DNA of 401 nucleotides from the NCBI RefSeq assembly GCF_003334765.1, contig NZ_QOWT01000126.1; one strand, given 5' to 3'. This document shows positions 173 through 291 of the stretch, piece after piece. The number at the start of each line of letters is the position of its first letter. The first letter of the stretch is position 1. The position numbers and the translations under genes are program-made. The stretch is from Escherichia coli. GTDB taxonomy: Bacteria; Pseudomonadota; Gammaproteobacteria; Enterobacterales; Enterobacteriaceae. The notes below the pieces were generated by a model, which saw only the letters and a list, made by a program, of their open reading frames with translations, was not told the origin of the DNA and did not search any database.

Positions 173-173
<1 letters not shown>

Positions 174-191
174 AATTTGCACGGCAAATTT
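173..191 (+). other. perfect hairpin abutting the tRNA-Ile 3' end (8-bp stem, 3-nt loop); candidate tRNA 3' processing structure
   Basis: AAATTTGC (173-180) is the exact reverse complement of GCAAATTT (184-191), with loop ACG (181-183). The first stem base is the terminal A of the tRNA CCA. A processing role is inference. Confidence 0.4.
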
Positions 192-215: not shown

Positions 216-291
216 GGGGCTATAGCTCAGCTGGGAGAGCGCCTGCTTTGCACGCAGGAGGTCTGCGGTTCGATCCCGCATAGCTCCACCA
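216..291 (+). tRNA. alaT: tRNA-Ala, anticodon TGC (76 nt, CCA encoded)
   Basis: Manual cloverleaf fold: acceptor stem 216-222 GGGGCTA pairs with 281-287 TAGCTCC and includes the G3-U70 wobble pair (G218 with T285), the classical alanyl-tRNA synthetase identity element; anticodon loop TTTGCAC at 247-253 with anticodon TGC at 249-251; T-arm GGTTCGATCC; discriminator A288; CCA at 289-291. The symbol is given for the paralogue family alaT/alaU/alaV; the specific copy cannot be determined. Confidence 0.96.

Follow-up and report, generated by a model that had tools for sequence, protein, structure and literature searches.

On balance, we consider it likely that the hairpin at positions 172-192 of the 401-nt E. 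coli sequence analyzed here (the whole stretch being referred to as the window) is both the base helix of a conserved element of about 82 nt and one arm of a junction in the precursor transcript, acting as a precursor scaffold that organizes the separation of tRNA-Ile and tRNA-Ala. The hairpin probably helps to organize nuclease access to the two spacer tRNAs and their cutting out of the transcript, with the E. coli version probably representing a minimal form that is weakly important on its own. For E. coli itself this is a modest refinement of known biology, of small consequence and probably of minor importance. By joining the CCA end of tRNA-Ile to both its 5' leader and its 3' trailer, the covarying junction provides a concrete and testable structural basis for the order of maturation; it also carries over to a tRNA the leader-trailer concept known from rRNAs.

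A hairpin and a leader-trailer helix around tRNA-Ile

The window is 100% identical to E. coli chromosomes, in the 16S-23S spacer of two-tRNA rrn operons. The features discussed here all lie on the plus strand and begin with the 3' end of 16S rRNA (1-28, with the end at about position 28, from Rfam SSU model positions 1506-1533 and the chromosome annotation). This is followed by tRNA-Ile(GAU) at 97-173 and tRNA-Ala(UGC) at 216-291, each with an encoded CCA and each placed by ARAGORN (anticodons GAT and TGC) in agreement with Rfam; the Ile-Ala spacer between them is 42 nt long. The sequence TGCTCTTTAAAAA (355-367) resembles the boxA antitermination element of the spacer. Rfam StyR-44, the region just upstream of 23S, is matched in its first 43 positions by bases 359-401 (41 bits, the match being truncated by the end of the window). 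A search of the window against Rfam 15 returned only the tRNAs, the partial SSU, the partial StyR-44 and chance-level matches, none of them on the hairpin.

Two minor features of the window were also noted. A perfect 8-bp complement joins 44-51, in the 16S trailer, to 331-338, in the region past tRNA-Ala (CTTTGCAG / CTGCAAAG); a sequence of 401 nt should hold roughly one match of this kind by chance alone. Many plasmids of E. coli, Salmonella and Shigella (about 85-130 kb) contain a stretch of about 50 nt that is about 86% identical to the interior of tRNA-Ala (window positions 223-278), and these plasmids probably carry a tRNA or tRNA-like gene.

A first-pass annotation of the window had described an exact inverted repeat at 173-191 that starts at the terminal A of the encoded CCA. 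We recover the same arms, AAATTTGC (173-180) and GCAAATTT (184-191), around the loop ACG (181-183), and A173 is indeed the terminal A of the CCA, as both ARAGORN and Rfam put tRNA-Ile at 97-173. The stem is perfect, as described, but the 8 bp assigned to it fall one pair short, since C172-G192 extends it to 9 bp. The full hairpin therefore consists of CAAAUUUGC (172-180), the loop ACG (181-183) and GCAAAUUUG (184-192), and includes both C75 and A76 of the CCA. As to the accompanying remark that the repeat could be chance, 2000 shuffles of the window that preserved dinucleotides gave a perfect hairpin of 9 bp or more, with a 3-8 nt loop, in 0.9% of cases, and 5000 shuffles of the CCA and spacer did so in 0.1%.

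The same annotation called the stem AT-rich and weakly stable, and here its caution is fair. The 9-bp hairpin alone has a predicted energy of -6.9 kcal/mol, and the spacer without the CCA (174-215) forms only 7 pairs, with an energy no better than that of its shuffles (z = -0.38). With the CCA included (171-215) the energy is -9.5 kcal/mol with z = -2.35, a value reached by 6 of 200 shuffles. When the tRNA cloverleaf is enforced, all nine pairs of the hairpin have a predicted probability of at least 0.985, and the 3' end of the tRNA sits at the base of the helix in the predicted precursor fold, as had been anticipated. No terminator-like or promoter-like sites were predicted in the window. A Rho-independent terminator was considered and rejected, as the stem has only two G-C pairs (three with C172-G192) and UUUU begins 7 nt past it. 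On our reading, the hairpin is an RNA structure of the rrn primary transcript.

Positions 85-94 (UAAAACCUCU), which end 2 nt upstream of the 5' end of tRNA-Ile, are perfectly complementary to positions 194-203 (AGAGGUUUUA), which begin 1 nt past the hairpin. The resulting 10-bp leader-trailer helix, which we call P1, encloses tRNA-Ile together with the hairpin. An unconstrained fold of 70-215 (-48.9 kcal/mol, z = -3.39) gives a three-way junction of P1, the hairpin and, as the third arm, the acceptor stem of tRNA-Ile, with linkers of 2, 1 and 2 nt. With the cloverleaf enforced, the pair probabilities of P1 range from 0.46 to 1.0, with at least 0.85 for the eight inner pairs and 0.46 for the outermost pair, U85-A203. 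The linker ACUACAUGUUAU (204-215), which forms the 5' leader of tRNA-Ala, is predicted to be single-stranded in this constrained fold and is the longest unpaired stretch of the Ile-Ala spacer, the others being A193 and the ACG loop; A204 and U207 are predicted to pair at the outer end of P1.

The sequence of P1 differs between loci while its complementarity is kept, as in the strand pairs GTAAAACCTT/AAGGTTTTAC, GTAAACATC/GATGTTTGC, ATACCTTAAT/ATTAAGGTAT, ACGGTATCG/CGATACCGT, CATCTCTG/CAGAGATG and TAACAGTG/CACTGTTG. Covariation of this helix was assessed by an alignment-free swap of leaders and spacers; MAFFT alignments of leader and tail mini-constructs were gapless and out of register. The mean P1 score was 7.17 for native combinations compared with 4.98 for swapped ones, and none of 2000 permutations scored as high. 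The three-arm architecture is also present in nine other genera, including those in which the spacer is little more than the trailer strand. Folding and covariation together indicate that P1, the hairpin and the acceptor stem form a compact three-way junction in the E. coli precursor.

An equivalent bracket around tRNA-Ala was tried by the same approach and rejected as a conserved feature (native 5.22, swapped 5.18, with 794 of 2000 permutations as high, across 79 loci). E. coli does have complements that flank tRNA-Ala, at 204-209/296-301 (6 bp) and at 199-207/300-308 (9 bp with one G.U), the latter of which would compete with P1. In rrnB no bracket was found close to tRNA-Glu, whose leader forms a hairpin of its own instead.

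The long element of related spacers

For comparison, the 3' end of tRNA-Ile was scanned in one genome per species, which gave at least 120 loci, mostly from Enterobacterales and with a few genera of Oceanospirillales; Vibrionales, Pasteurellales and others are outside this set. The Ile-Ala spacer of these loci ranges from 16 to more than 180 nt, most commonly 105-135 nt, and in this commonest form an irregular hairpin of about 82 nt lies directly 3' of the CCA. The layout of this element comprises a base stem of the form AAUUNNN...NNNAAUU, two short helices, an internal loop, a middle helix and a 6-bp apical hairpin. The internal loop is asymmetric, with CUGCGUU opposite CGCCUUG, and is nearly invariant. 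The element is present in most of the sampled Enterobacterales and in Nitrincola, Neptuniibacter and Aliamphritea (for example at loci L017:97-186:-, L099:78-167:- and L039:222-311:+), and in Aliamphritea it is found even without a downstream tRNA-Ala.

We aligned 57 distinct long-form sequences with MAFFT, covering several families of Enterobacterales as well as Nitrincola, Neptuniibacter and Aliamphritea. The consensus contains 25 pairs, 23 of which show compensatory double changes. Paired cells amount to 89.8% in the alignment, compared with 27-45% after sliding the 3' partners by one to three columns, and there are 326 double-change cells compared with 43-92 in the slid controls; none of 500 shuffles matched the observed values, a statistic that overstates the independence of the sequences because they are phylogenetically related. 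All 57 sequences share one invariant U.G pair. R1, a covariance model derived from this alignment, scores the sense strand at 58-97 bits for typical members and at 33-46 bits for four divergent ones, and the antisense strand at no more than about 26 bits. The invariant U.G pair and the sense-strand bias of R1 speak for a constraint at the level of RNA rather than the correction of a DNA palindrome. Judged by its covariation, the element is a conserved RNA structure. A search for compensatory changes across related spacers had been suggested by the first-pass annotation as a check on the hairpin, and such changes do occur: in the long-form relatives they preserve the helix whose first pair lies at the CCA or adjoins it.

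A search of 20 long-form loci against Rfam at E ≤ 1 found no specific family over the element. In our literature searches neither the enterobacterial element nor the tRNA-Ile bracket turned up as described; earlier descriptions are possible (Sekiya and Nishimura 1979; Perez Luz 1998; the ITS typing work of the 1990s), and a text search of the literature for the spacer sequence gave no match. The long element is well suited to being curated as an RNA family, and it explains much of the length variation of the Ile-Ala region in the ITS used for typing of Enterobacterales. A dispersed palindromic repeat of the REP or MITE type was rejected as an explanation: across about 530 kb of loci, strong R1 matches are confined to the position directly 3' of tRNA-Ile.

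Weak R1 matches of 21-27 bits occur at L092:597-705, L064:8104-8201, L027:3820-3918, L028:8039-8146 and L115:1016-1101, just downstream of 23S (in Arsenophonus, of tRNA-Ala) and antisense to the rrn operon; these may be other spacer hairpins or 5S rRNA. In Marinobacterium (L060) and Neptuniibacter (L095, L100), tRNA-Ile is followed by one or two degenerate copies that resemble it but have altered anticodon arms, and L100 also has a weak R1 match (25.7 bits, 254-362) on the opposite strand. The sequence CGCCTTGAC/CGCCTTGCC, conserved on the 3' side of the element (for example at L046, L002 and L003), contains a -35-like TTGAC, with a TAAT-type hexamer 16-17 nt past it in some long-form species. 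An internal promoter for tRNA-Ala and 23S is a possibility at some of the long-form loci.

Pairing of the CCA end is enriched across the sampled taxa. In 84 unique precursors, C74 and C75 have a mean paired probability of 0.64-0.68, compared with 0.33-0.37 when the spacers are shuffled (Wilcoxon p ~1e-7), and in E. coli it is C75 and A76 that are paired inside the predicted junction. A GGU trinucleotide (within GGUAA, GGUGA or GGUAC) is conserved just past the element in the long forms of Enterobacteriaceae and in Kluyvera (L053), and in many Enterobacteriaceae it is predicted to pair with A73-C74-C75 of tRNA-Ile. RNase P RNA binds the RCCA end with the same trinucleotide, GGU.

Short forms and the origin of the E. 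coli hairpin

Even at E ≤ 10, neither the window nor rrnB gave a match to R1, and E. coli is regarded as a derivative of the element and not a member because only the base helix has been kept. In position, the stem in E. coli corresponds to the long element's base stem. The sequence of its 5' arm and the adjoining bases (AAATTTGCAC) recurs unchanged in Erwinia rhapontici (L049), and the tail downstream of the hairpin (GAGGTTTTAAC.., GAAGAGGTTTTAACTAC...) shares homology with those found past the element in Siccibacter, Salmonella and Citrobacter. The element is partly deleted in Citrobacter youngae (75 nt), Citrobacter sp. R56 (61 nt) and Enterobacter sp. EA-1, with partial-deletion intermediates at L025, L011 and L092. 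A blastn search of 5,426 complete E. coli genomes found no match to the long form. Given the shared position, the flank homology and the partial deletions, parsimony favors a long ancestral form with repeated losses of the interior. From these comparisons, the hairpin in E. coli is best described as the surviving base helix of the 82-nt element, from which the interior was lost. Identity of the element with the 'rsl' spacer loop of the Glu-type spacers found no support.

The common polymorphism within E. coli affects the loop, which reads ACG or ACC. The same type of short hairpin is found in one strain of Citrobacter amalonaticus and in two Enterobacter species, with the loops GAT, GAA and CCT. 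This short-form family of E. coli, Citrobacter and Enterobacter has four loop variants that between them vary all three loop positions, together with three changed stem bases that leave both affected pairs intact, with no disruption; the stem of Enterobacter asburiae carries one compensation from U-A to C-G and one change from U-A to U.G. Covariation in this set of five sequences is not significant (117 of 500 shuffles), and the conservation of the stem in them is suggestive only. A metagenome scan for further short-form spacers gave one spurious match inside an unrelated sequence. Beyond this family, a hairpin with a score of at least 6 abuts the CCA in 10 of 25 unique short spacers, where 0.8 are expected, and these hairpins have about six unrelated stem sequences. 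Spacers of 16-23 nt, in Xenorhabdus, Neptuniibacter and Oceanospirillum, have no hairpin, and the existence of such spacers indicates that the hairpin is dispensable.

These observations bear directly on the main rival to a role in processing, which is that the E. coli hairpin is a neutral vestige, left over from an interior deletion and without a role, and that it is uniform owing to low divergence and to the concerted evolution of the rrn copies. Retention of the stem need not mean selection, because a deletion inside a hairpin automatically leaves complementary arms behind, and this, together with the lineages that lack a hairpin in their 16-23 nt spacers, is why we give a neutral remnant the most weight among the alternatives. 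It is also consistent with the weak, AU-rich stem, with the lack of significant covariation in the short forms, and with the presence of several deletion end-points (L011, L015, L025 and L092). However, the loop varies at all three positions in E. coli, Citrobacter and Enterobacter while the stem admits only changes that preserve pairing, and at least six independent short stems abut the CCA (10 spacers observed where 0.8 are expected). The hairpin is, moreover, built into a covarying three-way junction with very short linkers, and the pairing of the CCA is enriched across taxa. We regard a neutral vestige as an unlikely explanation, if a serious one.

Contigs from metagenome-assembled genomes labelled Bacillota (L037) and uncultured Desulfovibrio (L106) have an Ile-Ala spacer identical to that of E. 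coli and are most likely mis-binned E. coli contigs. In the Ile-Ala spacer of the E. coli GIMC1405:EC_Lstone01 assembly (L123), a hairpin arm is duplicated, and the sequence contains an N and a chimera resembling tRNA-Ala and tRNA-Glu; this looks like an assembly artefact across rrn copies.

Processing of the spacer tRNAs and alternative explanations

The order of maturation of the spacer tRNAs has so far been described in outline only, with RNase III acting for the rRNAs, followed by RNase P, RNase E and exonucleases for the tRNAs. In the model we favor, the junction would be a scaffold that exists only in the precursor and is lost during maturation. It would keep the A/U-rich spacer from mispairing with the tRNA, and would leave one longer single-stranded stretch (about 205-215) for an endonuclease, probably RNase E, to separate tRNA-Ile from tRNA-Ala. 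The separating cut would thereby be confined to the linker adjoining tRNA-Ala, making 204-215 the candidate site of endonuclease entry. Until this cut is made, the CCA and leader positions -3 to -12 would be hidden, so that the encoded CCA would be shielded from 3' exonucleases and productive binding of RNase P would be delayed. The RNA of E. coli RNase P contacts the 3' RCCA, and for this reason pairing of C75 and A76 should delay RNase P. After the cut, the weak AU-rich stem would be opened and trimmed.

RNase E is specific for single strands and acts as the principal initiator in the processing of tRNA precursors (PMC3985628), with the motif RN↓WUU in vivo (PMC5222698). The stem holds two copies of the RNase E-like motif AA↓AUU, at 173-177 and 186-190, both with pair probabilities above 0.98; a single-strand-specific enzyme should not cut these copies, because both lie inside the stem. 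Clarke 2014, Chao 2017, Stead 2011, Mohanty 2020 and Altuvia 2018 yielded no end-mapping of the ileT-alaT spacer for RNase E, RNase P or RNase III.

The helix around tRNA-Ile resembles the leader-trailer helices of pre-rRNA, the processing stems of 16S and 23S, in that it joins complementary flanks of a mature RNA within the same rrn transcript, conserves structure over sequence, as seen from covariation, and would be removed during maturation (PMC11404451, PMC10250234). It differs from them in flanking a tRNA and a hairpin and in having 7-12 bp in place of a long duplex, and it does not appear among the RNase III sites summarized in PMC6212723. In the literature we found, leader-trailer helices are described for rRNAs only; the 2024 survey of such helices mentions tRNA once, in passing (PMC11404451).

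Stem-loops in comparable positions are known elsewhere, and that of the Ile-Ala spacer is supported by comparative data from the long forms, the short forms and other Proteobacteria. Among the alpha- and betaproteobacteria, hairpins are found in the Ile-Ala spacers of Azospirillum, Ralstonia, Burkholderia, Aureimonas and Sinorhizobium, that of Sinorhizobium abutting the CCA. Structured 3' trailers need to be removed by an endonuclease before exonucleolytic trimming. The structured trailers of E. coli pre-tRNAs that RNase E removes (terminator hairpins and the leuZ 3' external transcribed spacer) are like the present hairpin in placing a stem-loop directly past the encoded CCA (PMC5222698). Unlike them, the Ile-Ala hairpin is internal to a polycistronic rrn transcript, is without a U-tract, has only two G-C pairs, takes the CCA into its own pairing and is linked by P1 to the 5' leader. 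The intervening sequences of 23S rRNA (in Salmonella, Proteus, Providencia and others) are extended hairpins, sporadic among relatives and operons, that sit in helices 25 and 45, are cut by RNase III and are excised from the precursor. The spacer element shares with them the character of a sporadic, excised rrn hairpin, and differs in lying between two tRNAs. As described in PMC12547630, the V2 helix of the cyanobacterial 16S-23S ITS, which we compared by description only, occupies the same position as the hairpin, is variably present, is without an established function and serves as a taxonomic marker, with no junction with a tRNA leader-trailer helix described there. Sequence homology between V2 and the enterobacterial element is unlikely, the resemblance being one of position. 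Set among these systems, the E. coli hairpin belongs with the rrn spacer helices as a genuine, though minimal, example.

A broader reading, which we put forward tentatively and consider possible rather than probable, is that the 82-nt element and P1 constitute an undescribed and widely conserved gammaproteobacterial module for the processing of pre-tRNA-Ile, and thus a candidate RNA family, in which the CUGCGUU/CGCCUUG loop is bound by a specific protein or nuclease and of which the E. coli hairpin is a natural minimal version. If this is true, the presence of such a version in E. coli would make the module genetically dissectable in single-rrn strains.

The nuclease of the processing step could instead be RNase III. 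The hairpin would then be stacked coaxially on P1, with the continuous strand 184-203 opposite 172-180 and 85-94. The pseudo-continuous duplex so formed, about 20 bp long, would be cut by RNase III to release pre-tRNA-Ile, and in relatives the long hairpin itself would be the target. The geometry of the constrained fold is compatible with this, as are the long forms with their 25 or more interrupted pairs. Interrupted stems of this size, 25 pairs or more, are typical of RNase III substrates. The rRNAs of the same transcript are, in addition, freed by RNase III cutting of their leader-trailer helices (PMC11404451). Against this, the duplex in E. coli is interrupted by the tRNA junction and each helix is AU-rich and only 9-10 bp; in place of a continuous duplex of about two turns there are the 10 bp of P1 and the 9 bp of the hairpin, which reach about 20 bp only if they stack across the junction. 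The seven previously known RNase III sites in E. coli rrn operons, as summarized in PMC6212723, are described as lying beside 16S, 23S, 5S, alaT (3') and gltT (3') only, with none between ileT and alaT; the refined set of that study excluded other rrn sites, so that absence from it is no proof. The short helices and the lack of a listed site between ileT and alaT make RNase III the less likely enzyme in E. coli, and we judge this alternative improbable, while cleavage of the long element by RNase III in other species is plausible.

Still less probable, in our estimate, is that the excised spacer fragment acts in trans, as a small-RNA sponge or as a protein-binding RNA in the manner of the leuZ 3' external transcribed spacer, with the hairpin as a stabilizing structure at its 5' end. 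Spacer fragments released from tRNA precursors by RNase E can be functional sponges (Lalaouna 2015, as cited in PMC5222698 and PMC9514646), and the invariant internal-loop nucleotides CUGCGUU / CGCCUUG suggest sequence-specific recognition. However, it is exactly these nucleotides that E. coli has lost, and the fragment lacks a 3' end of the terminator type to which Hfq could bind.

A chance palindrome or a DNA-level signal (a terminator, promoter element, cruciform or protein-binding site) gains something from the AT-rich repeat and from the self-complementary AATT, which raises the odds of a palindrome, but we consider it highly improbable and largely refuted by the rarity of an equal repeat in the shuffles (0.1-0.9%), by the scan of the window for terminator-like and promoter-like sites, and by the covariation, the G.U pairs and the strong strand asymmetry of R1 in the positionally homologous helix of relatives.
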